This document shows positions 13,323 to 38,277 of a stretch of DNA of 64,000 nt, in pieces (the stretch's first letter is position 1; every line of letters starts with the position of its first letter). The position numbers were made by a program, and so were the translations under genes. The DNA is taken from IMG/VR virus record IMGVR_UViG_3300029267_002792, one strand, 5' to 3'. The notes beneath the pieces were generated by a model. It was not told the DNA's origin. It did not search any database and saw only the letters and a program-made list of their open reading frames with translations. This stretch comes from a virus.

Positions 13323-16300
13323 TTATCTCCCTGGACCACCCGGCATACCAGGATGGCCCCCAATCCGAGAAACCGCTGCTTGGGCCTCTCGAATCGTTCG
13401 CCGGCGCTCCTCAGTTGTTCCTGCCGTTGGATTTACACCAAGAGCAGCCACCGCCTCCCGGAGTTCGTCCATCTTGGCCACGAACAACTGCTGGTATCCC
13501 CCGCGACCTCCCACTCCTCGATACCAATCCGGATGGTGGATGGCCTGAAGGACCTCATTCCCCCGAAGTTGAGCTAGGCGCCGTCGCATCGCCTCTTCAT
13601 CCGCCGGGCGAGCCAGTGCTGATGCTGCTGCTCCCCGAGCCTCAGCCAGACGCGCGTTAGCCGCGGTTATCGTCCGAAGCCGGGCAATGATGCCTTCAAC
13701 AGCTGTCTCGGTTCCTTCCATCGTGACGAGCGACTGCGCCAGCACCCGACTGAACAGGTCTGTCATGATCTCGGAGATGCCCTCGGCCATGGTCGTGAAG
13801 TGATCGACCATCGCCTCCGAGAACTCGCCCATGTTCTCCACTACAGCGGCGAAGCCCTCCTGGAACCCAGACACGATCGCATTCACGGTTGCGTCGTGGA
13901 GAACAGCCTGCATCGTCTCGGACACACTGTTAGCGGCCGAAGTCATGACTTCCTCGGTCGCCTCCATATCTCGCCCCACCACTGTGTTGATGGAGTTCCC
14001 AAACAACCGTACAGCGGCAGCCAGAATCGAATCGAGCTGCCCCCGTCCAGCGTCACCCAGAGTTTGAAACGCTTGCGTCACTGGCTGGATAGCCTGTGTC
14101 AGGCTCTCGAAAATGGGAGACAGGATAGCCGTCAGCCCACTCCACCCCTCTTGAATCCGCTCCGGGACACCTACCAGATCCTCCCACACACTGCCGATCG
14201 ACTCGCTGATCGTCGACCACACCGTACCAGCCACCTCGCTGATTCCCTCCCACGCCGCCGTGAGGTTGTTGAAAAACGGGGTTATCACCCCCTCTTGAAC
14301 CGACGACAACGCTAGAGCTATGTTCTCCCGGATACTTCCCCATATCTCAGCAAGACGAGTCCTAAGTTCCTCAAATCGAGCTACCCACTGCGGGAGCACT
14401 TCCTCGATAGCTTGGGTCGTCTGCGGAAACACGTTCCGAAACCACTGCACAAACCCGGTCCAAAGACCACGCAACCACCTCTCGAAGCGCTGTGGCGCAG
14501 ACGTGGCGTTCTCCCACATCGACTCGAAAGTACCAAACGCCCCATCCCACAGCTCCAAAAACTCCTCAGCTACAGGCTCCCACAGCTCTTGGAACCATAC
14601 CGCTACCGCTCCGACAACCTCCCGGACATTATCCCCCCAGCGCTCCCACCCCTCAGCAACGATTGCCCAGAGGCCTACAAATGGGGCTACCAACAAAGCC
14701 GCTCCAACCGTAAGCGCGGCAACCAACGCCGCAACGATAGCTGCCGACAGCGCTGTGCTCGACACCATGAACACGTCAAGCCAATGGTCTCGGAACCACT
14801 GCCCGATCATCGTCCCAAGAACCTCCAGAGCCGGCTGGACAGCCTCCCACAAGCTAGCGGCGAGGTCACCGATCTGGCTGAACACCTGGTTCCAATCAAT
14901 CCCCTCCCACCATTCACCGATGCGATTCCAAATGATCTCCCGGAACTGAGTCATCTTGGTTTCCAGCCATGGCCGAATGTGCTCAAACAGGCCCTCCAGA
15001 CCCTGCCGAATGTTCGCCCATATCCCGGCCCAATCTACCTCCCCTAGTCTCTCCACCACTCGGCGGATAGCACCCATGACTCCGCGATCCTCTTCTCCAG
15101 CGGCCGGACCCTCGAAGAGCTGATCGAAATTCAGGTTGGAAAACGCCTCCGCCGCGCGGACCACCCACTGTTCGATATCACCAATCCACTCCTCGAAGAT
15201 GGAGGCGTACCGTTGCGCCTGGTTGTCGATCGCCCGGCCAAGCATCACCATGGGGTCGATGGCCTCTTCCCCGGCTTGGCGAGCGCTTCTAGACAAACGC
15301 CCCCACTCGGTAATCACATCCGTCGTGAAGATAGAAATATACCCAAGCACGGTGTCGAGAATGCCACCCCACGACGTGAAAGCTTCAACAAGCGGCATGA
15401 TCTGCCCACGTAGCTCGTCGGCCGCTATCGCCGAACCGCGCAGCTCGGCGGGCATGAGAGCCAGAGCCCCTAGCTGTTGGGACCGAGAAAGAAGCCCCAT
15501 GACATCCCGGAGAGGTCCGGTAGACCGCGCCGCTTCGCCCGCCGCCACTCGAAGATCCCTCAGGCTGTCGCGCGTGCGCCGGAGAAAGTCCCGCGAGTCG
15601 GCCCGCGAAATCCGACGCATCGCCGTTTGAAACCCGGCCCGCATGCGTTCGAGGACCTCGTCCATCGTGCGACCGGTCGTGTGGGCGTCCCGAGCCAACT
15701 GTGTGAGGTCAACGGAGGCGTTGCGAATAGACCCCATCGCCTGGACGGTCTCCGAGTCCATCGTTCCCCAGAAGTTGATCAGCGTCGCCGTCATCTCAGG
15801 ACCAAATACCTGCTGCAGCCGCCCACGCATGAACTCCATCAGACGTCCAACGTTGCCCCCGCTATCCCGGGTGCTCTGGACCAGCTGCCCCATGCCTTCG
15901 ATAAGGCCGCCCGGACCGGCCTGCATGAGGCGGAATGACTCGTTCACCTCACCTCGGGTGACAGCAAGCTCCGTGACCAGCTGAGGAAGCTGATCCTCAG
16001 TGCCTGCAAACATGTTCTGGAACGCTTCTCGACTCTCCGTTACAGTCCCGGCCAGCTCGGAAGCCATCTGACGGGCTCGATCTGAGTCCTGCGTCAGTGC
16101 GAACAATCCTCGCGCAGCCGCAGCGGTGTCAGCCGCAAACGCAGCCATCTGCTCCGGCGTATCCCCCAGAGCCCGACGACGTTCAAGCATCTGCAAAACC
16201 TGTGGAAGCTCATTCAAGGCGCCAGCTACATCCCCCGTCTCACGACCCATCTGCGTCAGAGCAGAAGTGACCAAGTTGATCTGCTCGTCCGAAGCCCCAA

Positions 16301-17120
16301 GATTTCGCAGCTCTAGAGTCGAATTACGAAGAACGTCGGCGTTGATTCCGAGCGCCGAAGTTAGCCTAGCCACATCCTGAGCGCTCCGGAGACCTGTCGC
16401 TCCCAGCACCTCAGCAGATTCGTCCCACGCACGAATGGCCCTGGCGGCCTCATCCGCCCCGATGTTGAGTCCCATAGCCATGCTGGTAGACTGCTGGACA
16501 AACCGATTGAGGTCGCTGCCGATATACCCCATGTTCGCGCCGACTTGCCGTGCCGTCTGACCCAGAGAGACAGCCTCGGCCTCCAGGCTGTTGGTCAGGT
16601 TCACGCCCTCATTCGCGATCCGGTGAATCGCGTCCCCGGCCCGGCGAGGTAGGCCTGTCACAGCATCAACCATACCTCCGGCCGACTCCGCCGCCTGACC
16701 AAACCCAGCAATGATCGGCCCGAGAGCCATACCAACCCAGCCCAGAGCCCCCGTTATCTTCCCGGCCCCTCCAAGAACCGAGTTCGCCATGCGACCAAAC
16801 TTCGTACCACCGACAGCTGCCTCGGCAGCCATACCACCCATAGCGACCGAGAGGTCGTCTACCTGCTCCTTGGGGTCGCTCGGAAGACTCAGATCTAGGT
16901 CGTCGAATGACCACTCGACGCCCTCGAACTCTTTGAGTTCATCACCAAGACCGCTGAATAGCCCTCCAGCCGGGGCGAGCCCTTCTGCGGCGGTGTGCTG
17001 AAAGTCACTGAGCGAGTCGTTCAGCTGCTTGAACTGGGTGTCGACGTTACCGAGCGCAGCGTTCAGACCAGAGTCTTTGGCCCCAAAGCTGAAACCGCAG
17101 CCCATGAAGTTCAAACCCAC
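13323..17120 (-). CDS. Tape measure protein (1265 aa)
   Basis: Long helical Ala/Gly-rich ORF with periodic Trp and hydrophobic segments; directly after the chaperone frameshift pair; GGAGG before GTG. Confidence 0.9.
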   Translation of the reverse strand: MGLNFMGCGFSFGAKDSGLNAALGNVDTQFKQLNDSLSDFQHTAAEGLAPAGGLFSGLGDELKEFEGVEWSFDDLDLSLPSDPKEQVDDLSVAMGGMAAEAAVGGTKFGRMANSVLGGAGKITGALGWVGMALGPIIAGFGQAAESAGGMVDAVTGLPRRAGDAIHRIANEGVNLTNSLEAEAVSLGQTARQVGANMGYIGSDLNRFVQQSTSMAMGLNIGADEAARAIRAWDESAEVLGATGLRSAQDVARLTSALGINADVLRNSTLELRNLGASDEQINLVTSALTQMGRETGDVAGALNELPQVLQMLERRRALGDTPEQMAAFAADTAAAARGLFALTQDSDRARQMASELAGTVTESREAFQNMFAGTEDQLPQLVTELAVTRGEVNESFRLMQAGPGGLIEGMGQLVQSTRDSGGNVGRLMEFMRGRLQQVFGPEMTATLINFWGTMDSETVQAMGSIRNASVDLTQLARDAHTTGRTMDEVLERMRAGFQTAMRRISRADSRDFLRRTRDSLRDLRVAAGEAARSTGPLRDVMGLLSRSQQLGALALMPAELRGSAIAADELRGQIMPLVEAFTSWGGILDTVLGYISIFTTDVITEWGRLSRSARQAGEEAIDPMVMLGRAIDNQAQRYASIFEEWIGDIEQWVVRAAEAFSNLNFDQLFEGPAAGEEDRGVMGAIRRVVERLGEVDWAGIWANIRQGLEGLFEHIRPWLETKMTQFREIIWNRIGEWWEGIDWNQVFSQIGDLAASLWEAVQPALEVLGTMIGQWFRDHWLDVFMVSSTALSAAIVAALVAALTVGAALLVAPFVGLWAIVAEGWERWGDNVREVVGAVAVWFQELWEPVAEEFLELWDGAFGTFESMWENATSAPQRFERWLRGLWTGFVQWFRNVFPQTTQAIEEVLPQWVARFEELRTRLAEIWGSIRENIALALSSVQEGVITPFFNNLTAAWEGISEVAGTVWSTISESIGSVWEDLVGVPERIQEGWSGLTAILSPIFESLTQAIQPVTQAFQTLGDAGRGQLDSILAAAVRLFGNSINTVVGRDMEATEEVMTSAANSVSETMQAVLHDATVNAIVSGFQEGFAAVVENMGEFSEAMVDHFTTMAEGISEIMTDLFSRVLAQSLVTMEGTETAVEGIIARLRTITAANARLAEARGAAASALARPADEEAMRRRLAQLRGNEVLQAIHHPDWYRGVGGRGGYQQLFVAKMDELREAVAALGVNPTAGTTEERRRTIREAQAAVSRIGGHPGMPGGPGR

Positions 17121-17129
17121 TGCCGCCTC

Positions 17130-17345
17130 CTACCGTCTTCGTGCTCTCGCCCGAGCCTGCTGAAGAGCCGCGTTGTGATTCTGCTGACGCGTCCGCTCGA
17201 GGTTGGATTTCTCGACCATCAAACGGTGACGCCGTGTCACGGGCATGCCCATGACAGCTTCGTAGGAGATACCGGACCAACACTCCATCAAAAAAAAGAG
17301 TTCCTTCTCTAGCGCTTCCGCCGACCCCCAGGGAAGAAAAAATTT
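17130..17345 (-). CDS. -1 frameshift extension (gpGT-like) of the tail assembly chaperone
   Basis: Slippery A AAT TTT TTC at 17345-17336; the -1 frame reads LPWGSAEALEKELFFLMECWSGISYEAVMGMPV... to a stop at 17130, just before the tape measure gene. Confidence 0.8.
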   Translation of the reverse strand, partial: KFFLPWGSAEALEKELFFLMECWSGISYEAVMGMPVTRRHRLMVEKSNLERTRQQNHNAALQQARARARRR

Positions 17346-18163
17346 GCAGCGCTGAGATCCAGATCCTTCTCCCACTCGCTCCCACACGACGGGCACTCCA
17401 GCTCCAAAGTCGTATCGATGCCGCCCTCCACCTCCTCAAACTCGTTCCGGAGGAATTGGCGATCACGCATCCCTAGCGACTTTACCATCTTGAGGGTGGG
17501 CTTTTCACCTCCAAGCAGCTCCAACCGCATAAGCAAAGACTGGGACGGCCCATCTGCCTTGTGTTTCTGCCGCTTGATGATCTTGTTGAAGTTGGCCTCA
17601 TCGGCCCCTGTCGGTACCCGAAATCTGGCTGTGGTACCGGAAGGAAGCTGCACGTCGTACACCCGCTTCCGCGGGTTTTTCATCTCCTTCGGGTTCAGGT
17701 CTTCCGCAAGGTCAACCATGAACAGCGTAGTTACTCCGCAGTCCGGACACTTCTCTCTCACCGGGAGGTCGTCCCCGAGAGTGACGCGCCGGATGGCGAA
17801 AATGAGAAAGACGCGATCCCCGATAACCAGGTCCTGCACCATCCCCGAAATGAGGCCCTTGTCCGTGACGGTCCCAATACGCTCCACGCACCCGGCTAGA
17901 AGAGTCGACACCTTCTGTGCCGAAGGAACCTGTTGCGAGGACAACATGTCCTCCTCGTGTCCCGTAATCTCCCGAACCTGTACCTCCCGGAATAGCTCTT
18001 GAGTGTGCGGGTCCAGGTAGCCGCATGGCAGCTCGAACACACCTAGCGTACCTTTCGGCGTCTCCATCTGCTGCACGGTGTGCATGTGCTCGATGGCTCC
18101 ACCCACAGGTGCCTCAGGCTTTCCATCGCTGATCTCGTTCTGAAGATTTTGTTCGCCGTTCAT
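17309..18163 (-). CDS. Tail assembly chaperone, T4 gp26-like (284 aa)
   Basis: VREITGHEEDML; CPDCG and CPSCG zinc pairs; ends ANFFFP upstream of the tape measure gene. Confidence 0.8.
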   Translation of the reverse strand: MNGEQNLQNEISDGKPEAPVGGAIEHMHTVQQMETPKGTLGVFELPCGYLDPHTQELFREVQVREITGHEEDMLSSQQVPSAQKVSTLLAGCVERIGTVTDKGLISGMVQDLVIGDRVFLIFAIRRVTLGDDLPVREKCPDCGVTTLFMVDLAEDLNPKEMKNPRKRVYDVQLPSGTTARFRVPTGADEANFNKIIKRQKHKADGPSQSLLMRLELLGGEKPTLKMVKSLGMRDRQFLRNEFEEVEGGIDTTLELECPSCGSEWEKDLDLSAANFFFPGGRRKR

Positions 18164-29798: not shown

Positions 29799-31289
29799 TT
29801 ACAGGTTATTCACGGTCAGCTGGCCATAAAAATCTGGCCGAAGCAGCTTCTTGGCGTACCGCGTGCGGAGACCCTTGCGGAAGCTGAAGTCCGATGGATC
29901 GAGGAAGGTCGGAGTGACCTGGAGTGGCACGTAGGGAGCCCAAACGAAGCCGCTCTCCAAGAAGGAGCCGCCCTTCAACCCGATCATCATCTTGTTGGTC
30001 GTGAAGAAGGGGTCTTCGTAAACGGTCCACTTGTTCATGAGCGTTCCGGTCTTGTAGATGGAGAACTGACCGTGGCTCGTCCTGGGCCGCATCATGATGT
30101 CGGTGGGCGAGTTCGGGTTCATGTCTCCCGACCAGATCGGCTTGAAGTCACCGTGTGTGGTCAGCTGGGTCAAGAGCGCCGAAATCTCGGGGCTCGTGAC
30201 GATCCAGTTGGCAGGCGCGCGGAGCGTCTTCTTGTGGATGAGATTCGAGACCGTGCTGATCTGCGTGATCATGGCACGCAAGTGGTCGATCTCGGAGATG
30301 CCACCCGGAGGGATGCGATCGAAGGTACCAGTCGTCCCGGTCGAGTTCAGGAACAGGTCCTGAATGATCTCACGGTCGATTTCCAGCGCAATCTCCTGCG
30401 CGATGATCGACACGATCTCGGTCTCGGCGTCGAGGCCGTGGAAAGCTCGGAGATCCTCCGCCGCCTCGGACGACCACAGGGCCTTGAGCCGACGCGGCTT
30501 GGCCTCCACGGGGGACTTCTTGACGTCGAGCTTGACCTCGGGGACCTTCGTGTTCAGCTCGCCGTCGAAGTAGTAGTACGCCTTGACCTGGTTGCCGGTG
30601 GCCGGCGGGTTCGTGAACAGGAAGCCGGTGATGGCACCGTTCGAGTAATTGATCGTGCCCGCAGTGACAGCACCAGTGAAACCACCGGACCCGTCGTCGG
30701 TGGCTTCCTGCACGGTCGCGCCAGCCGAAGACACCTCGCGAACGATGCACGAAAACCCACGAGTCGCGTCCAGTGGTCGAACTGGCGTCCAGGCGAGGTC
30801 GGCATCGAGCGGGGTGCCCGCACCACCGTAGTTGACGTTGTCTCCCGTGACCAGCGGTTCGCCGTTGACATACTCACTGGAGTAGTCCCGATCGAAATCC
30901 CGAGGGAAGACCGCACCCTCGGTCGTGCCGCCCTTGGTGGAGCCGTACACGTAATCTAGGAAGAAAACCGCGCCGATCGGAGCGGTCATCGGCTGGACGC
31001 TGACGATCTCGTTCGCGATCAGGTTGGGGAAAACTCTCCTCAACACCGGGAAAATGAACTTGGTGAACGAGCCGACGTTGACGGTCCTTGTCTCCTCCGT
31101 GAGAGACTGGAGCCACAGGGACTCGTTCTCCATGAGCATGGCCGTACACCCGAGGATGTACCGATCCTGCTCTGAATAGTCGGCGAGGCCCTCCAGGAAG
31201 TCTCCCCACTTCCGAATCAAGGCCCCGACGTAGCTCTGGTCGGCGATGGTTTGACGACCTTCTTCTTGAAGCATCTGTCGAGCTTCCAC
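29799..31289 (-). CDS. Major capsid protein, T4 gp23-like (496 aa)
   Basis: LRRVFPNLIANEIVSVQPMTAP.G.VF.LDY; RRLKALWSSEAAEDL.A.HGLDAE.E....A.EI..EIDREI; YAPY/WAPYVPL; TRYA. Confidence 0.95.
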   Translation of the reverse strand: MEARQMLQEEGRQTIADQSYVGALIRKWGDFLEGLADYSEQDRYILGCTAMLMENESLWLQSLTEETRTVNVGSFTKFIFPVLRRVFPNLIANEIVSVQPMTAPIGAVFFLDYVYGSTKGGTTEGAVFPRDFDRDYSSEYVNGEPLVTGDNVNYGGAGTPLDADLAWTPVRPLDATRGFSCIVREVSSAGATVQEATDDGSGGFTGAVTAGTINYSNGAITGFLFTNPPATGNQVKAYYYFDGELNTKVPEVKLDVKKSPVEAKPRRLKALWSSEAAEDLRAFHGLDAETEIVSIIAQEIALEIDREIIQDLFLNSTGTTGTFDRIPPGGISEIDHLRAMITQISTVSNLIHKKTLRAPANWIVTSPEISALLTQLTTHGDFKPIWSGDMNPNSPTDIMMRPRTSHGQFSIYKTGTLMNKWTVYEDPFFTTNKMMIGLKGGSFLESGFVWAPYVPLQVTPTFLDPSDFSFRKGLRTRYAKKLLRPDFYGQLTVNNL

Positions 31290-31427: not shown

Positions 31428-33092
31428 TCAACGCCTCATGCCCGACAAGTTCTTCAGATCGGACAGAGACACTCCGAGCCCATTATAGTTGTCGGCCCTG
31501 CCTCGATGAGACCTGACCTCCTTTGTGTCTTCCTGTAGATGCTCGTACCCGCCTTGAAGCTTCGCGCGGACACGGGCTCGAACATTCTCCAGATCGTCAA
31601 CATCTCGAGTCGGCTCGCGGAACTCCTCAATCACCGCATCCACGTGTTCCCGAGACTGAAACCCGGATCGTTCCAGCATGCGAAGGATCTTCGCACCCCA
31701 CGGATGAGTTTGCAACCTTTCACTCGCGTAGACCCTTACAGCGAGATCGCGGTTGGCCACGAGCGCCTTCTCCAACCCCTCCGCCAACTCCTGGTTTCGG
31801 GCTCGGAGAGCATCCGCCTCTTCTGTCTGAGCGCGAAGAACCCGCTCCTCTTCGAGGCGAACCGTACGCAGCTCCTGCATGGCCTCTTCAACGCTTTCAC
31901 GAAGATCGTCCGGAGTTTCGTATTGGGCAACGTCCCCAACGATACCTCGAATGCGTCTAGCATCCGAGTTGTCCTCGTGAAGCAAACACTCCAAGTGATA
32001 CCTATACCCTGCTTCCCGAGCCGCCTCGGTCAACGTTCCGATCAGCGACTCTTGCTGCTCGATCGTAGCCTCGGCTTCTTCGAGCTGGGAACGAAGCTGC
32101 GTAATCTCCTCGTCGCGCTCGGCAACGAGGGCCGTAGCATCCTCGGTCAGAGCGAAGGGCAGCAAAGCACGCTGCACTTCCTCCAGGGCCGCCCTGGCCC
32201 CGGCCACAGCAGGGTCGGTCGCCATCTCAGTGCGCACCTGCTGCTCAACATCAGCGCGCAATGCCGCAATGCGATCCACGAGCACGGATGCGAACTCTTC
32301 ACGCAAACGCTCGACCGGGACCGGGTCGCCATTCATGTCCTGAAGGACGCGATCCGCAAACCGCTGGGCCATCTCGGCCTCACCAGGAGGAGCCGACGAC
32401 ACGTTAGGAGCGTCAGATGTTTCCGACTCCTCCGATGCCTCGACCTCCTCTTCCTCCCTCGAAGCGGCCTCTACCTCTTCCTCGGAAGCCGGCTCAACCT
32501 GAGCATCCAAATCCGCACCCTCAAACATCATGGCCGCACCGCTCTCGGAACTCTCGAACACCGCCTCAGGGTAGGCCGTCGGATCAGCAGGCTCGGCAAC
32601 GAAATCGAAGGTGATGAGCTTGTAGTCGTCCTGAACTTCCTCAATACCCTTCCCGTCCGGCTTCGTACTCCCGAATCCTCGAGAGCTGATGCCGACAGGA
32701 ACACCGGCAGCCAAGATGGCTTTGAGATCACGACCCTTGGCCGTATCCAAGATCTCCGCCTCACCAATCACCTGATCGCCCTTCAACTGAAGATCAGTGA
32801 TTACGTGCGAAGCGCGCTGAAGAGCTGTCCGACCGTCTGTCGGATGGTCTAACTCTCCAATCACTTTTCTGGCTTGCAGGTTCTCCTGGAGGCGGGAGAT
32901 ATTGCTCTCCCAAATGCGATGACGATAAAAACGGCCATTGGCAGTTGGCTTCGCCGCGTGGCCGAATTCGCCACGTGCGTACACACGGCCCTTCTTCTCG
33001 CCCTCCCCTTCAATCAGCTCGAGTTTGCAGTGTTGAACCTGCTCATCGATCAGCTGATTTTTCAGGGACTGGGAGTCGACAGGAGTACTCAC
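31428..33092 (-). CDS. Prohead protease (T4 gp21-like) fused to an acidic coiled-coil scaffold (554 aa)
   Basis: NGRFY, GELDHP, SHVIT, GISSRGFGS, TFDFVAEPA; C-terminal ~350 aa helical and Glu-rich. Confidence 0.9.
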   Translation of the reverse strand: MSTPVDSQSLKNQLIDEQVQHCKLELIEGEGEKKGRVYARGEFGHAAKPTANGRFYRHRIWESNISRLQENLQARKVIGELDHPTDGRTALQRASHVITDLQLKGDQVIGEAEILDTAKGRDLKAILAAGVPVGISSRGFGSTKPDGKGIEEVQDDYKLITFDFVAEPADPTAYPEAVFESSESGAAMMFEGADLDAQVEPASEEEVEAASREEEEVEASEESETSDAPNVSSAPPGEAEMAQRFADRVLQDMNGDPVPVERLREEFASVLVDRIAALRADVEQQVRTEMATDPAVAGARAALEEVQRALLPFALTEDATALVAERDEEITQLRSQLEEAEATIEQQESLIGTLTEAAREAGYRYHLECLLHEDNSDARRIRGIVGDVAQYETPDDLRESVEEAMQELRTVRLEEERVLRAQTEEADALRARNQELAEGLEKALVANRDLAVRVYASERLQTHPWGAKILRMLERSGFQSREHVDAVIEEFREPTRDVDDLENVRARVRAKLQGGYEHLQEDTKEVRSHRGRADNYNGLGVSLSDLKNLSGMRR

Positions 33093-33096
33093 GTCC

Positions 33097-33342
33097 TCAT
33101 CCTCGCTTCCACCGGAAGTTGGATCGGAACGGGGTGCGGCCAGTTATGGTGTCCAACACACCCCCAAACCCAGGACGGTCGAGCACGGAACCATCCCTAC
33201 CGACAGTACGTGTCTTCCGCTTCACTGGGCTCTTCTCCACTCCGACCACTTCTTTTCTCCCCGAAGAATACGCCGTTCGGCGGCGCCTCCACGATCCGCC
33301 CTTCTTTGGCGGAAGGGGCCGACGCCGCTCTATTCGTTTCCC
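33097..33342 (-). CDS. Predicted -1 frameshift extension (79 aa, basic) of the acidic prohead core protein
   Basis: G GGA AAC heptamer at 33342-33336, 7-nt spacer, then a hairpin; the -1 frame stays open to TGA at 33099-33097, 4 nt before the next start. Confidence 0.65.
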   Translation of the reverse strand, partial: GKRIERRRPLPPKKGGSWRRRRTAYSSGRKEVVGVEKSPVKRKTRTVGRDGSVLDRPGFGGVLDTITGRTPFRSNFRWKRG

Positions 33343-34235
33343 TCGTTCTCGCCTTCGCCGATCTCCTCGTCCGAATCACCTTCCTCAGAGTCGTCGGCAT
33401 CAGCATCGGAGTCGTCATCCATCGCCTCGCGGATGACGGCGTAGGTCTCCAGACCGCTCAGGACCGTACCTAGATACTCATTGAGCATCTCAGTCACAGC
33501 ATCGAGGTTGATCGCGTCCGGGTCCTCGGTCTGAAGTACAGTCACAATCTCCGCTGAGCACTTGGCGATATCCTCGTAGGTCTCGGCGATCTCCGCGTAC
33601 TCCACATCATCTTCGACCGTGGCCAGCTCCTCGAAGAACCCGTACAGCTTCTCGGCAACGAGGGCCAGGTTGGCGAACGCCGGTGCCGCCTCGTCCATCG
33701 ACTGCGGAGCCCCCACGTCCTCGTCAAGGAGAGACTCGATCGCTCTCATGGCCTCAGCCACGGACTCGTACGGGTGTGCCTGCCCCGACCCATCTTCCGC
33801 ATCGTCAGCGTCAGTCTCCTCGTCGTCATCGAGGCCCTCCCCGATAACGTCCCCGGAAAGCTCCATGACGGACTCTGCGAAGCCTTCCAGCTCCTCCATC
33901 TGGTCGTCACTGAGATCGACAGTCTCGACACCGGCCTCGCCCCACTCATCCCACTTCGACTTCAAGGCGGCGTGGAAAGCCAAGGCCTCCGTCACACCGG
34001 ACTCGTCCGTGTCCTCGTCCTCACCTTCGGCGTCGGCATCGACCTCGTCGTCTGCCGACTCGGCCGCCTCATCGGACTCATCCGACTCATCAGTGCTCAG
34101 CTCGGACTCAGCCTCAGCCTCCTCCTCTGTCTCCTGAGCATCTTCCTCGTCGCGGTGCTCCTCCGTGATGAGGCCGATCCGTCGAAAATCCTCCTCCACG
34201 GAAGTAATCACTACCGGATGTCTCAATAGACTCAT
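33330..34235 (-). CDS. Very acidic prohead core/scaffold-like protein (301 aa)
   Basis: Asp/Glu-dominated; AGGAGG before ATG 34235; lies between portal and protease. Confidence 0.7.
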   Translation of the reverse strand: MSLLRHPVVITSVEEDFRRIGLITEEHRDEEDAQETEEEAEAESELSTDESDESDEAAESADDEVDADAEGEDEDTDESGVTEALAFHAALKSKWDEWGEAGVETVDLSDDQMEELEGFAESVMELSGDVIGEGLDDDEETDADDAEDGSGQAHPYESVAEAMRAIESLLDEDVGAPQSMDEAAPAFANLALVAEKLYGFFEELATVEDDVEYAEIAETYEDIAKCSAEIVTVLQTEDPDAINLDAVTEMLNEYLGTVLSGLETYAVIREAMDDDSDADADDSEEGDSDEEIGEGENEGNE

Positions 34236-34245
34236 CTCATTCCTC

Positions 34246-35148
34246 CTAGTTGGCCTCAATCATCCGATTGGCCACCACGACGGCGAAGCGACTCGCAACC
34301 TCGCGGTCACGCAGTCCCTCGACGATTGTGTCGCAGAGTTTACCACGAGAACGGACATCGTCCATCATCTCTGCAGCCTTGGAAGCCGTCTCGTGTAGCG
34401 AACGCAGGTCGCTCAGCAAATCCCCAGCGAACTGCGCGAACATGGCCGTTACCTCGTCATCTGGGTTCGAGAGTAGCCCGGCCACTGATTCCAGCGACTC
34501 GCTAACCTCGTCCCGGAGACTCCCCAGCCTGTTGAGCACGATCCGCAAATCCTCGATCACTTGATCCTCGTCGCAGTCACACTCGTGCTGCGTAGGCAAT
34601 GCGATCGACTCATCATACAACTTCCCGAACTTCGGGTGCAACTGGCCGCCTTCGCCAGCCAGCGAGGACTCCGCCAAGAATCGAACCACGAATTCGCGGC
34701 GAGCCTCCAACACCCGTCGCCACAAGCGAGGAGAGAAAACGACTGCCGAGACCCGAGAAACGTCGTCATTCGGAAACGCAGCCAGCGGAACGAGCATTTC
34801 TAGCAGCCCTACAGCTCGCTTCACCGAACCACCCAAAAACAAGTCCACTACCCTCGTCGCCTCGCGCTCCACAAAACTCCGCACGTTCCCTGGAGTGAAC
34901 ACCTCGGCATCAAAATCCCGTAGGACGGGTCCCGACTCGCTCAAAACCATCCGGAGAAACCGACCATCGGAATAAACGATCGCCCCGTCCTCCCGAGTGG
35001 CCACCACCTGGAAGGGGGTCTCACCTAGCAACAGCCGAACGATCACTGCCGCTTCCTCGATCTTCTCCTCGTAGCTCCCGGACCGTAGCCTCCGGAGTTC
35101 GCTACCCGGCAGGAGTTTTTCAGAACGAGCGATCATATTGGCCGACAC
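34246..35148 (-). CDS. Hypothetical head-module protein (300 aa)
   Basis: ORF between portal and core gene; no motif recognised. Confidence 0.65.
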   Translation of the reverse strand: MSANMIARSEKLLPGSELRRLRSGSYEEKIEEAAVIVRLLLGETPFQVVATREDGAIVYSDGRFLRMVLSESGPVLRDFDAEVFTPGNVRSFVEREATRVVDLFLGGSVKRAVGLLEMLVPLAAFPNDDVSRVSAVVFSPRLWRRVLEARREFVVRFLAESSLAGEGGQLHPKFGKLYDESIALPTQHECDCDEDQVIEDLRIVLNRLGSLRDEVSESLESVAGLLSNPDDEVTAMFAQFAGDLLSDLRSLHETASKAAEMMDDVRSRGKLCDTIVEGLRDREVASRFAVVVANRMIEAN

Positions 35149-35178: not shown

Positions 35179-38100
35179 TTAGCGCCCCCGAGCAGCAGAG
35201 GCTACATCCCGAATCAGCGCCACGCTTTCCTTGAGCCGACGGCTCTGAGCATCGCTCGACCGTAGGATACGATCAAGCTTTGTCTCTGCTCGCTTCTCCG
35301 CCTCCCGACTCCCTCTAAGCAATTCTTGTTCAGAAATACCGCCACGAAGCCTACGTGGGAGCGAATCGATCTTGCGCTCCAACATACGCATCCCAGACCG
35401 GAACCCTGAAGGCAACCCCAACGACTCCACGCCCCCTCCCACAGCGGCCGACGCTCGCTCAACATCAGCCTGAGCTTGCGCGCTCATCTTCTCGACCTCG
35501 GCCTGCGCCTTACCCTCGCGAATGACATCCTCGGATCGCTCCTGAATGATGATCCGGATGTCCTCCTCCGACAGCTGGTAAACGTTCTCCAAAACCCACC
35601 GAAGGGAAACGTGCTCCTTCATACGAGCCGCCAAGTCCGCCCGAGCGTTCCGAACCTCCAACTGCGCCAGCTCGAAAATCGCTGACGGCACAGTCATGTG
35701 AATCGTGTACTCGTGGTCGTACGGGTTGACGTTGATTGCGGCCAAGTGCGTCCGGCTGATCTTCCTCAAGCCGTTCCGAATCTCACGCTGGACCCGGAGC
35801 ACAGAGCGAGCGAACCGGACATCCTCGCTGGAGAGCACGGCGCGAGCCGTATTCTCGTCCTGAGCAAGATATGCCTTCGGCACCTTGAGTGCGGAAAACA
35901 TCTTCGTCTGGAAGTACTCGACGTCGTCCATGTGCTGCCAAGAAGGACCACCGAGAACCTCAATCCGAGTACCCTCCACTCCTTGGCGGACCGGCACCCA
36001 GAAATCGTCATCCTGGCTAAGTGGTTCAAATTTCAGGTCTAATTTACCTGTGGAAGGGTTCACAAATCGCTTCTTCTTGTGCTGCTGCCGAATCCTGTTC
36101 ACAAACGCCAGCGCCTCCTGGGGAGGCAAATTACCTACATCTACGTAGAACGCAAAGCGCTCAGGCGCTCGCTGGAGCCGGTAGATCATGGCAGCGTCTT
36201 CCAGGAGCATCAATCGCTTCCATATCCAGCGCGCAGGCTCGAGAACGGAGTTGTGAACGACGAGCCCGTCAGCAACAAAGTTGTGCGCTTCGTGATCAAC
36301 CTCAATGTCGTAAACAGGCTCAGGCGGAGTATCCTGCTCGGTGACAGAAAGCACCCCCTCCAACTTGAAAGGCCCGTCGAACAACGGCGTAGTGTGGAAG
36401 TGAATAATATACCCAGGCCCTGAATCCACCACCTTACCCATCATGGCAGGATGCGTCGACACCACACCACGACGCGCCCCGCGGGTACAGACATTCCCAC
36501 ACGTCCAACCCAACCCATCGATAAGAGTTTTCAGATCGCGGACCAAGTCGTAGTTGCTCAGCTCCACTCGCTTCGCCCGACACCCAGCCTGCTCAACCTC
36601 CCAACCGTCAGCCGCTACAAACCCCGCAACAAACGCCTCCCTGATATCTCGCGACGACTCAAACACCCACTGTGGCACACGCTTATCATGAGAACCATTG
36701 ACAAACCCGAGCCCTCGCAAAATGTCCACGAAGTCGGCCGAGTGAACAACAAGCTGTCGAAGGACACGAACCTCTTCTCCAGTGTCCTCATTGACAACCC
36801 TCTGATAGCGCTCCTTCGGCTCCAACCCATACACCCGAAACCGCTCACGAATGTTCTCAGTCAGTGATTCGTCCAAACTGACAGCCACACCAACATCATG
36901 CCCCTGCGAGGTCCATCCATCGCCCAAGAGCAACCCAAACAACCACGCAAATTCCTCGTCCACATACTCAGGGCACCGGACGAAGTTCCCTCGGCATCGT
37001 CCATGAACCACAAACGCCCCAGGGCGTGCCAGCTCAGGAACTGCCCCACACATCCGATCAAACACATCCCGAACAACACTTCGATCACCGGCACAAAATA
37101 CGTCAGCCCCGGCGTCGATATCGCTTAGCCCGGTCCTTCGGTAGAAATACCGCTCCCCTTCTCGAAGTCTAGCCACCGCTTCGACCCCTTCAGAGGTCAA
37201 CCGCACTCGATCAAACACCTCCGGGCTCTTAGTCCGTGTAAGTACCCCGTCAACCTCAGGAGGACGAGGAAGAACAAGTCGATCACCTCGACACAACTCC
37301 GAAACAGGCTTGTAGGTCAACAAATCGGTCTCGCTGAACACCATCACAGGGTGCTCTGCCGTGGCAAAGTTTTCGCGATGCCGAGTCTTGATCGAATAAA
37401 CCTTCTTCTCTCCACTACGAACCACGTCAAGAACCTTCACCCCGATCATTCGGCTGTTGTCCATAACATGAACAACGTCTCCGGGACGTAGGTTCTGGAT
37501 CTCCTTCACCCCGAACGGGGTAGAGACCTTTGACGTCGCCCTTTCGCAATAACCGTATACACTTCGGCGATGCTTTCCCCGCAAGCGAAAATGGGCGACC
37601 TCCCAAGGTTCGAGCGCATTGACCCGCTGAAGCATGTTCCCGGGCACCCGAGCCTGGCCCGGCTGCATAGCCTGGCGAATGGCATCGGTACGCTGAGCGA
37701 GGATCTTCTGAAACCCCTGAGGACTATACCCGAATCGACCTTTGAAATCCTGGACGAACCCGTACAGCTCCCCGCGCGGGCCTTCCACGCGCCGGACCGT
37801 AGGAGCGGGGAGAAAATTCAGACCGACCACACCCTCATCCGTGACAAGCAGCTCCTCAAAGTCGTTCCCGTACTTGACGAGAGACCGCACTATCTCCCAA
37901 ATCTCCTCGTCAAGTCGGAGGCGCTTGTAGAACAGATCGTCCAGTACACCTTGAAGGGTCTTGTCCGGACTCGACACCCACACCGTTCGTTGAAGCTGAG
38001 TATCGGGCTGAGAAGCATCGTCCGCGTACACGTCGATCGCTGATGCTATCTCGGGATAGTCATCCATCTCCTCGTAGTCGACGTATCGGCTTAGGAGGTC

Positions 38101-38277
38101 GTGTTCGAGCCGGAGATAGTCCGACAGAGCGTCGTACCCGTAGGCTTGCAGAAGGTCGTACCCCGAATCCGGGTAGGTCGGAGACGTGCTGCCCTTCGCG
38201 AGCAGCTGTCCCCCACGCTCTTTATCTGCCACGAACGCGCCGCGTAGGCGATCAATGACGTTCTGTACAGCGCCCAC
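35179..38277 (-). CDS. Portal protein, T4 gp20-like, interrupted by an intein (1032 aa precursor, about 599 aa mature)
   Basis: YEEMDDYPEIASAIDVYADD; RSLVKYG..F; LLEDAAMIYRLQRAPER.AFYVDVGNLP; DDFWVPVR.G..GT.IEVL.G; ALKVPKAYL; EDVRFAR. Confidence 0.95.
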   Translation of the reverse strand: MGAVQNVIDRLRGAFVADKERGGQLLAKGSTSPTYPDSGYDLLQAYGYDALSDYLRLEHDLLSRYVDYEEMDDYPEIASAIDVYADDASQPDTQLQRTVWVSSPDKTLQGVLDDLFYKRLRLDEEIWEIVRSLVKYGNDFEELLVTDEGVVGLNFLPAPTVRRVEGPRGELYGFVQDFKGRFGYSPQGFQKILAQRTDAIRQAMQPGQARVPGNMLQRVNALEPWEVAHFRLRGKHRRSVYGYCERATSKVSTPFGVKEIQNLRPGDVVHVMDNSRMIGVKVLDVVRSGEKKVYSIKTRHRENFATAEHPVMVFSETDLLTYKPVSELCRGDRLVLPRPPEVDGVLTRTKSPEVFDRVRLTSEGVEAVARLREGERYFYRRTGLSDIDAGADVFCAGDRSVVRDVFDRMCGAVPELARPGAFVVHGRCRGNFVRCPEYVDEEFAWLFGLLLGDGWTSQGHDVGVAVSLDESLTENIRERFRVYGLEPKERYQRVVNEDTGEEVRVLRQLVVHSADFVDILRGLGFVNGSHDKRVPQWVFESSRDIREAFVAGFVAADGWEVEQAGCRAKRVELSNYDLVRDLKTLIDGLGWTCGNVCTRGARRGVVSTHPAMMGKVVDSGPGYIIHFHTTPLFDGPFKLEGVLSVTEQDTPPEPVYDIEVDHEAHNFVADGLVVHNSVLEPARWIWKRLMLLEDAAMIYRLQRAPERFAFYVDVGNLPPQEALAFVNRIRQQHKKKRFVNPSTGKLDLKFEPLSQDDDFWVPVRQGVEGTRIEVLGGPSWQHMDDVEYFQTKMFSALKVPKAYLAQDENTARAVLSSEDVRFARSVLRVQREIRNGLRKISRTHLAAINVNPYDHEYTIHMTVPSAIFELAQLEVRNARADLAARMKEHVSLRWVLENVYQLSEEDIRIIIQERSEDVIREGKAQAEVEKMSAQAQADVERASAAVGGGVESLGLPSGFRSGMRMLERKIDSLPRRLRGGISEQELLRGSREAEKRAETKLDRILRSSDAQSRRLKESVALIRDVASAARGR
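36250..37548 (-). mobile_element. Intein with LAGLIDADG homing endonuclease (433 aa) in the portal gene
   Basis: Starts at Cys (GY|CERATSKV), ends VVHN|S; block B FATAEHPV; LAGLIDADG motifs FGLLLGDGW and AGFVAADGW. Confidence 0.93.

Follow-up and report, generated by a model that had tools for sequence, protein, structure and literature searches.

A probable programmed -1 ribosomal frameshift adds a basic tail to an acidic head-module protein in an uncultured clade of T4-type phages

To our knowledge, nearly all documented phage frameshifts occur in tail assembly chaperones, and only a few are found in major capsid or tail proteins. The tail assembly chaperone of lambda is reportedly produced as G and GT by frameshifting, and other tailed phages are said to have counterparts of this system (Levin, Hendrix & Casjens 1993; Xu, Hendrix & Duda 2004). 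In the head, phages T7 and T3 feature a frameshift in the major capsid gene (10A/10B). The lambda G/GT frameshift, which yields short and long products in a ratio of 30:1, has been reviewed (PMC5009743), and a frameshift in the gene for the major head protein of Lactobacillus phage A2 (gp5A/5B) is reported by Garcia et al. 2004 (PMC355979). The head genes of T4 are arranged in the order 20-67-68-21-22-23, and gp67 and gp68 are minor core proteins degraded by gp21 (PMC9958956). The C-terminus of T4 gp67 is a long poly-acidic stretch; in gp68, whose gene immediately precedes gene 21, the C-terminal half is very basic. In the literature that we searched, frameshifting in a head-core gene of the T4 type is not described. 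The mechanism that we propose below for such a gene (heptamer, spacer and stem) is a textbook one, which limits the surprise; the case itself is deeply conserved, in a putative head-core, scaffold-like gene of a large T4-type clade.

The junction in question lies in a 64-kb stretch of DNA (the window), which is a piece of a 109-kb IMG/VR virus record with a G+C content of about 59%. The genes of the head module around the junction, recognized from the ORF list and from Pfam and PHROG matches, are all encoded on the minus strand. These genes and the elements of the junction itself are as follows:

38277..35179, minus strand: T4-type portal with an intein (PF07230 and intein domains)
35148..34246, minus strand: 300-aa ORF between the portal and the acidic ORF
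33330..34235, minus strand: acidic zero-frame gene, 301 aa, with TAG at 33332-33330
33336..33342, minus strand: G GGA AAC, the slippery heptamer, phased as X XXY YYZ and one codon ahead of the zero-frame stop
33329..33335, minus strand: spacer GAAUAGA of 7 nt, which includes the zero-frame stop
33277..33328, minus strand: predicted stimulatory stem-loop (MFE fold and RNAalifold)
33100..33336, minus strand: -1 frame extension of 79 codons, from CGA 33336 to GGA 33100, with the stop TGA at 33099-33097
about 230 nt between the acidic ORF and the protease, minus strand: gap that holds the -1 frame tail
31428..33092, minus strand: S77 prohead protease with a coiled-coil, scaffold-like C-terminal part, 554 aa (PF03420, E 2.4e-20; phrog_207, E 3e-52)
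31289..29799, minus strand: gp23-type major capsid protein

The acidic gene begins at ATG 34235, a start conserved in relatives as MSLLRHPVV and located downstream of TTG 34259, from which the program-listed ORF of 309 aa starts. Its 3' end reads GAG GGA AAC GAA TAG. In the MFE fold of the window the outer stem is formed by GCGGCGUC (33328-33321) pairing with GGCGCCGC (33287-33280), and the inner hairpin, UCCGCC-AAAGAAG-GGCGGA, occupies 33313-33295, with arms at 33313-33308 and 33300-33295; the register of the outer stem that is kept in relatives is 33328-33323 with 33282-33277. The -1 frame is translated as GKRIERRRPLPPKKGGSWRRRRTAYSSGRKE...FRWKRG or, in a longer rendering, as GKRIERRRPLPPKKGGSWRRRRTAYSSGRKEVVGVEKSPVKRK...TPFRSNFRWKRG. 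Only 4 nt (GGAC) separate its TGA from GTG 33092 of the protease gene. The heptamer, the spacer, the stem and the open -1 frame had been proposed in a first-pass annotation of the window, and they held up on inspection. The heptamer, the 7-nt spacer and the stem lie exactly where that annotation had placed them, the stem being the one in the MFE fold; a recount of the tail returned the same 79 open codons with 24 K/R and 6 D/E; the -1 stop does precede the protease start by 4 nt within the gap of about 230 nt; and the two isoforms envisaged, of 301 and about 379 aa, agree in size with the predicted zero-frame (301 aa) and frameshifted (379 aa) products.

Two of the neighbouring genes have unusual features of their own. 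The portal intein (35179-38277, minus strand) carries a LAGLIDADG-like domain (PF14890, PF14528), and in one relative, L012, the portal call reaches 2174 aa and has several intein matches. In the protease gene (31428-33092), the S77 part covers approximately residues 30-180 and is followed by an acidic linker and then by a long coiled-coil. This fusion, present in all relatives with a length of 495-580 aa, resembles T4 gp21 and a gp22-like scaffold combined in one gene.

How does this junction compare with the described systems? Like lambda G/GT, it would use a -1 slip on G GGA AAx near the 3' end of a morphogenesis gene; its extension has no start of its own and would be made only as a fusion; the layout outlasts sequence divergence; and the ratio of long to short product is presumably fixed and low. 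Unlike lambda G/GT, the junction belongs to the head module, where it is located between the portal and the S77 protease rather than ahead of a tape-measure gene. In addition, it has no sequence relation to the lambda system, and its extension also occurs as a standalone gene in some lineages. The likeness to A2 and T7/T3 consists in a -1 slip near the end of a head-structure gene, giving a minor form extended at the C-terminus. However, in those phages the gene encodes the major capsid protein and the extension decorates the shell, whereas here the protein is acidic and scaffold- or core-like, and the extension is strongly basic and predicted to be disordered.

Judged by themselves, the features of the window are only partly beyond chance. 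Stretches of at least 81 stop-free codons are found at 30% of random positions on the minus strand of the window, and the fold shows no significant extra stability relative to shuffled sequences (z of -1.5 and -1.0). GGGAAAC occurs 4 times in the 64 kb versus 8.9 expected. Long minus-strand ORFs, comprising 19,620 codons, contain 38 in-phase X XXY YYZ heptamers, of which just 3 are found near a stop with a -1 extension past it. These 38 sites amount to about half of the random expectation (about 77), a scarcity that fits avoidance of accidental slippery sites and that is not significant alone. The case for frameshifting therefore rests on the relatives, where it is strong.

A protease-based scan of viral contigs produced six closely related loci with 51-72% protease identity. 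The end of the homologous acidic ORF is formed by G GGA AAC in four loci and by G GGA AAA in two, and the stop comes 0-1 codon further on. In every case, the basic ORF occupies the -1 frame and is open from the heptamer; it overlaps the acidic ORF and reaches almost to the protease start, the distance being a few nucleotides. The stop of the tail forms a TGATG overlap with that start in L002, L003 and L005 (L002:3958-3966, L005:3995-4003), and the two are separated by a gap of 4-8 nt in the window (33090-33099), L004, L006 and L007. Among 12 aligned close relatives, GGGAAA is invariant and every sequence has an in-phase heptamer, while the acidic C-terminus around it varies (EGNE, EGND, GGNE, RGK). 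As far as sequence comparison can tell, what the relatives keep is precisely the in-phase slippery heptamer, the position of the predicted stem and the open -1 frame, the features in homologues on which the first-pass annotation had made its interpretation depend.

The segment that follows the heptamer offers no place to start translation. Counted from its last stop ahead of the heptamer, the -1 frame of the seven sequences (the window and the six relatives) contains no ATG, GTG or TTG until at least codon 31 past the heptamer, not even where 156 upstream codons are open. In L005, a TGA interrupts the -1 frame one codon ahead of the heptamer. At the same time, the start-less segment bears a clear coding signature. 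Nei-Gojobori counts of synonymous to non-synonymous differences are 16:2 for the window versus L004, 14:2 for the window versus L005 and 13:0 for L004 versus L005. Over the 28 start-less codons after the heptamer in six gap-free relatives, there are 228 synonymous to 61 non-synonymous differences in the -1 frame; read in the other two frames, the same codons give 32.5 to 251.5 and 27 to 266. The dN/dS of the tail stretch is 0.00-0.21 in the -1 frame and above 1 in both other frames, and the variable columns over the whole tail number 24, 16 and 71 at codon positions 1, 2 and 3, respectively. This substitution pattern shows that the start-less part of the -1 frame evolves the way protein-coding sequence does.

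The downstream RNA structure is conserved as well. In all 7 sequences of an RNAalifold run, a 6-bp outer stem that starts 7 nt past the heptamer was retained, and across 12 sequences the outer helix is 95.8% paired. The compensatory exchanges within it comprise one pair that is G-C in five sequences, G-U in five and A-U in two, and another that changes from G-C to C-G. The covariation score of 0.223 compares with 0.134 +/- 0.027 for shuffled data, where none of 500 shuffles reaches it, and with at most 0.164 when the partner strand is slid out of the true register. More distant lineages have long hairpins of unrelated sequence after the heptamer. The first paired base is 7 nt after the heptamer in 16 of 38 non-redundant heptamer junctions and 6-8 nt after it in 23 of them. 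Such constant spacing over unrelated sequences argues for selection on structure. The mean fold z-score of the 38 junctions is -1.58, and the lowest value is -5.1; some of this capacity to pair is a by-product of the codons for Arg (CGN), Pro (CCN) and Gly (GGN). A Shine-Dalgarno-like stimulator of the dnaX type upstream of the heptamer was considered and given no weight, since GAGGA-type strings are everywhere in this Glu/Asp-rich gene. A separate observation concerns L012, in which an 87-nt insertion (L012:2915-3000), a multiple of three, is found between G GGA AAA and the conserved tail. The insertion is rich in hairpins, and the -1 frame is open throughout.

The same arrangement extends far beyond the close relatives. 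An alignment of the tail retrieved 67 viral-contig loci, which were dereplicated to 52 junctions. The tail is in the -1 frame of an upstream long ORF in 47 of these non-redundant junctions, and the upstream ORF represents one family: jackhmmer started from the window protein reaches 45 of the 52. In 33 junctions, no ATG, GTG or TTG precedes the invariant RRTAYSSGR motif, and 28 of these 33 have an in-phase canonical heptamer. Five start-less -1 junctions (L029, L033, L045, L057 and L068) contain no canonical heptamer, so some lineages would use a non-canonical site or another route. Within the overlap windows of all 52 junctions, X XXY YYZ strings occur 48 times in phase versus 6 and 3 times in the wrong phases. 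The commonest heptamer is GGGAAAC, located 0-1 codon ahead of the stop. Other lineages have GGGAAAA, GGGAAAG, CCCTTTC (2-18 codons before the stop), AAAAAAA or TTTTTTT, and in some of them CCCTTTC or GGGAAAA is found 9-24 codons before the stop. Thus conservation in homologues, phase bias, selection and stem covariation all support the programmed -1 frameshift that the first-pass annotation had suggested, and we consider it very probable that the junction is a canonical case.

Re-initiation on a near-cognate codon overlapping the zero-frame stop is the only rival explanation with any support. In this scenario, or in the related one of an internal start at GTG 33249 or 33240, the basic peptide would be a separate protein. 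Indeed, the stop is overlapped in the -1 frame by AUA in five close relatives (as AUAG or AUAA) and by CUG in two (as CUGA); however, AUA and CUG are very weak starts, and the overlap is an automatic consequence wherever GAA, AAA or GAC is the last codon before the stop. An internal start might draw support from GGGGAG, located 7 nt ahead of GTG 33249, but this string represents the Gly-Arg codons of the RRTAYSSGR motif. That motif together with about 30 codons is under strong purifying selection upstream of GTG 33249, and the GTG itself is not conserved, being absent in L005 and L006. Hence independent translation from the GTG near 33249, which the first-pass annotation had named as the outcome that would speak against it, cannot explain the data: the conserved motif lies upstream and no earlier start is available. 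A separate peptide would agree with the listing of the peptide as a small protein by gene callers and with the standalone genes having their own ATG in L008, L010, L038, L041 and L062. Yet re-initiation leaves unexplained why GGGAAA is invariant amid a variable acidic C-terminus, why heptamers are so strongly biased toward one phase, why CCCTTTC or GGGAAAA occurs many codons before the stop in other lineages, and why a stem follows 6-8 nt after the heptamer. On balance, we regard separate translation of the peptide at this junction as improbable.

Even less credible is the possibility that the 230-nt gap is non-coding and represents a regulatory RNA, such as a hairpin, an attenuator or a protease leader, with the open -1 frame being a by-product of GC-rich sequence. 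The frequency of such open frames at random positions and the conservation of the stem would agree with it. However, most of the variable columns occupy the third codon position of the -1 frame, this frame is the only one with a dN/dS far below 1, and the peptide remains recognizable at 35-50% identity where the DNA of the lineages no longer aligns. Moreover, a terminator scan found none on the coding strand, and the Rfam search gave only two sub-threshold rows at chance level, one of them the frameshift-site family RF01074 at E 0.85 and 18.6 bits versus a gathering threshold of 40. The codon-position and selection data thus rule out a non-coding spacer as well as translation only from GTG 33249. 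The idea that one continuous gene was split into two frames by an indel from assembly or sequencing, or by a recent frameshift mutation, has next to no probability: homopolymer-like GGGAAA runs can cause indel errors, but independently assembled Logan contigs from four public runs of several studies have neither differences nor gaps over 32900-33700 at a word depth of 12-15x, a separate 304-nt contig covers 33059-33362 without an indel, more than 60 contigs from unrelated metagenomes display the same -1 relation, and a search of 1.84 billion representative proteins returned no in-frame fused form.

About 10 junctions have their own ATG shortly ahead of the motif. Among these lineages are L008 (1451-1666), L010 (3001-3171), L038, L041 and L062, in which the ATG is found 6-21 codons before the motif. 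In L008 and L038, the protein from the own ATG begins MS[DN]ELQ...EAWRKRRTAY; in L010, the corresponding sequence is MNEAWRNRRTAY, and G GGA AAG is present one codon before the upstream stop. Both L010 and L062 retain an in-phase GGGAAAG or GGGAAAA in the upstream gene despite having their own ATG. These five lineages may be intermediate between two states of the peptide, the standalone gene and the frameshift extension. A phmmer search with the tail against the 1.84 billion representative proteins found no in-frame fused protein and returned only small stand-alone calls of 42-76 aa along with one spurious repeat protein; of the four longer homologues among the results, two start within the conserved domain. 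The contigs that encode stand-alone calls share the same module: a portal, two proteins of about 300 aa each, a small ORF, an S77 protease and gp23. The presence of an own ATG in some lineages means that the peptide can work unfused, and since it is standalone in some related lineages, the functional unit would be the peptide itself. Its distribution suggests an old autonomous unit that, depending on lineage, is made via frameshifting, from its own start or possibly by both routes. The coexisting frameshift-dependent, dual and standalone versions provide a natural series for the gain and loss of recoding sites.

The tail constitutes, by its sequence motifs, a new small basic protein family (SWRxRRTAYSSGRxE...FRWKR). 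Its 52 aligned members share two Arg- and aromatic-rich motifs, SWRxRRTAYSSGR[KR]E and, at the extreme C-terminus, TPFRSNFRWKR, which are joined by a variable Lys/Arg-rich linker. The AF2 model of the tail alone is disordered, with a pLDDT of 60 and no secondary structure. Such a pattern fits a peptide that would fold on a partner, either nucleic acid or the inner capsid surface. Complex prediction of the tail with the capsid protein and with the protease domain gave a score of 0.00, which weighs neither way. Neither Pfam nor PHROGs offered a meaningful family for the tail family or for the acidic protein.

The acidic protein has 106 D+E and 13 K+R when read as the 309-aa ORF. Its family has a conserved N-terminus, MSLLRHPVVITSxEEDFRxIGLIxE, or, in the wider form, (M)xLRHPVVITSLEEDFxxIGL[IL]xE. 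In the AF2 model, a short N-terminal helix at the EEDF motif and disordered acidic stretches accompany a confidently predicted C-terminal helical bundle (residues 155-275), and a fold search with the protein gave only generic helical-bundle and coiled-coil matches. The T4-type cleavage motif [IL]-x-E is found after the N-terminal segment in 25 of 34 members, and the window and its close relatives have a further motif of this kind just before the acidic C-terminal stretch (VIRE, ILRE, ILHE). The positions of these motifs fit T4-type processing by the prohead protease. We infer that the zero-frame protein is a component of the prohead core, probably scaffold-like and processed by the S77 protease. 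The label of prohead core protein was chosen because of synteny (T4-type portal, two ORFs of about 300 aa, S77 protease-scaffold and gp23-type capsid) and also because of the N-terminal EEDFxxIGL[IL]xE that ends in the L/I-x-E cleavage motif.

The closest parallel within the T4 head is provided by gp67 and gp68. The place between the portal and the protease and the pattern of acidic and basic segments agree with T4, and the [IL]-x-E motif after the N-terminal segment hints that the proteins described here may be processed as gp67 and gp68 are. Unlike in T4, where two ordinary genes are present and no frameshift is involved, the proteins here are much longer. When the tail profile was aligned to gp68 and gp67 with hhalign, the probabilities were 0.09% and 0.03%, which gives no sign of homology. 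Because no homology is detectable, we liken the pair to gp67/gp68 by position and charge and do not assign it to them; in these two respects, the basic tail resembles, as a putative analogue, the basic C-terminal half of gp68.

On the basis of these data, the following sequence of events can be proposed. On arriving at G GGA AAC, a ribosome translating the acidic head-module gene would have its P site occupied by tRNA-Gly and its A site by tRNA-Asn, and the GC-rich stem 7 nt downstream would hold it up there. A fraction of ribosomes would then re-pair one base back (GGG AAA), bypass the TAG and read 79 further codons, giving the 379-aa protein ...EGN-RIERRR...FRWKRG, while the remaining ribosomes would terminate and release the 301-aa acidic protein, so that both products are probably made. 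The heptamer G_GGA_AAC is a recognized shifty sequence, on which a tailed virus of haloarchaea relies for its g-t frameshift (PMC5009743). A point against the interpretation is that, in E. coli, ribosomes slip far less readily on X XXA AAC than on X XXA AAG (PMC5009743). ARAGORN identified zero tRNA genes in the 64-kb window; thus, tRNA-Asn, tRNA-Gly and tRNA-Lys for decoding the slip site are not provided by this part of the phage. The basic linear-motif tail would be delivered into the prohead, where it may bind DNA or the inner surface of the capsid or portal. Frameshifting would be one way to make the peptide in a fixed, low ratio to its carrier.

In a more elaborate and rather doubtful extension of this scheme, the frameshift would do more than yield an isoform: it would set the dose in a pro-peptide system that operates within the capsid, with the carrier, release and protease-dosage parts belonging to a single reading. 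Here, the acidic protein would both carry and neutralize a protamine-like basic peptide, and its N-terminal targeting segment would take the peptide into the prohead. The S77 protease would free the peptide by cutting at the [IL]-x-E motif just before the acidic C-terminal stretch, after which the peptide would stay with the packaged DNA. Since only frameshifted ribosomes terminate at the protease start, coupling of protease translation to the frameshift is conceivable, and the efficiency of slipping might then feed the dosage of the protease as well. Lineages would be able to switch between the frameshift arrangement and a standalone gene.

The clade that possesses the junction is entirely uncultured, and its sources are marine and sediment metagenomes. 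No match to the 3.8-kb region was found by blastn in 50,697 phage records, and tblastn with the tail and the standalone homologues P0004 and P0006 against cultured phages gave no match even at E 1. The nearest capsid in GenBank, with 37.6% identity, comes from an uncultured 595-kb phage. The tail is kept across lineages at only 30% protease identity, and this conservation implies that it matters for the assembly of heads or the packaging of DNA. Gene callers either miss the product or call a truncated piece of it, and the long isoform is consequently absent from annotations.

A second -1 frameshift candidate, this time with the layout of a tail chaperone, is present on the minus strand of the window at 17345-17336. 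The gene concerned (18163..17309, 284 aa) ends ...GCA AAT TTT TTC TTC... and has in-phase A AAT TTT and T TTT TTC 8-9 codons before its stop. Beyond that stop, the -1 frame continues for 60 open codons and ends 10 nt short of a tape-measure-like gene (17120..13323, 1265 aa). From its sequence context, this seems to be a separate, classical site of the G/GT type.
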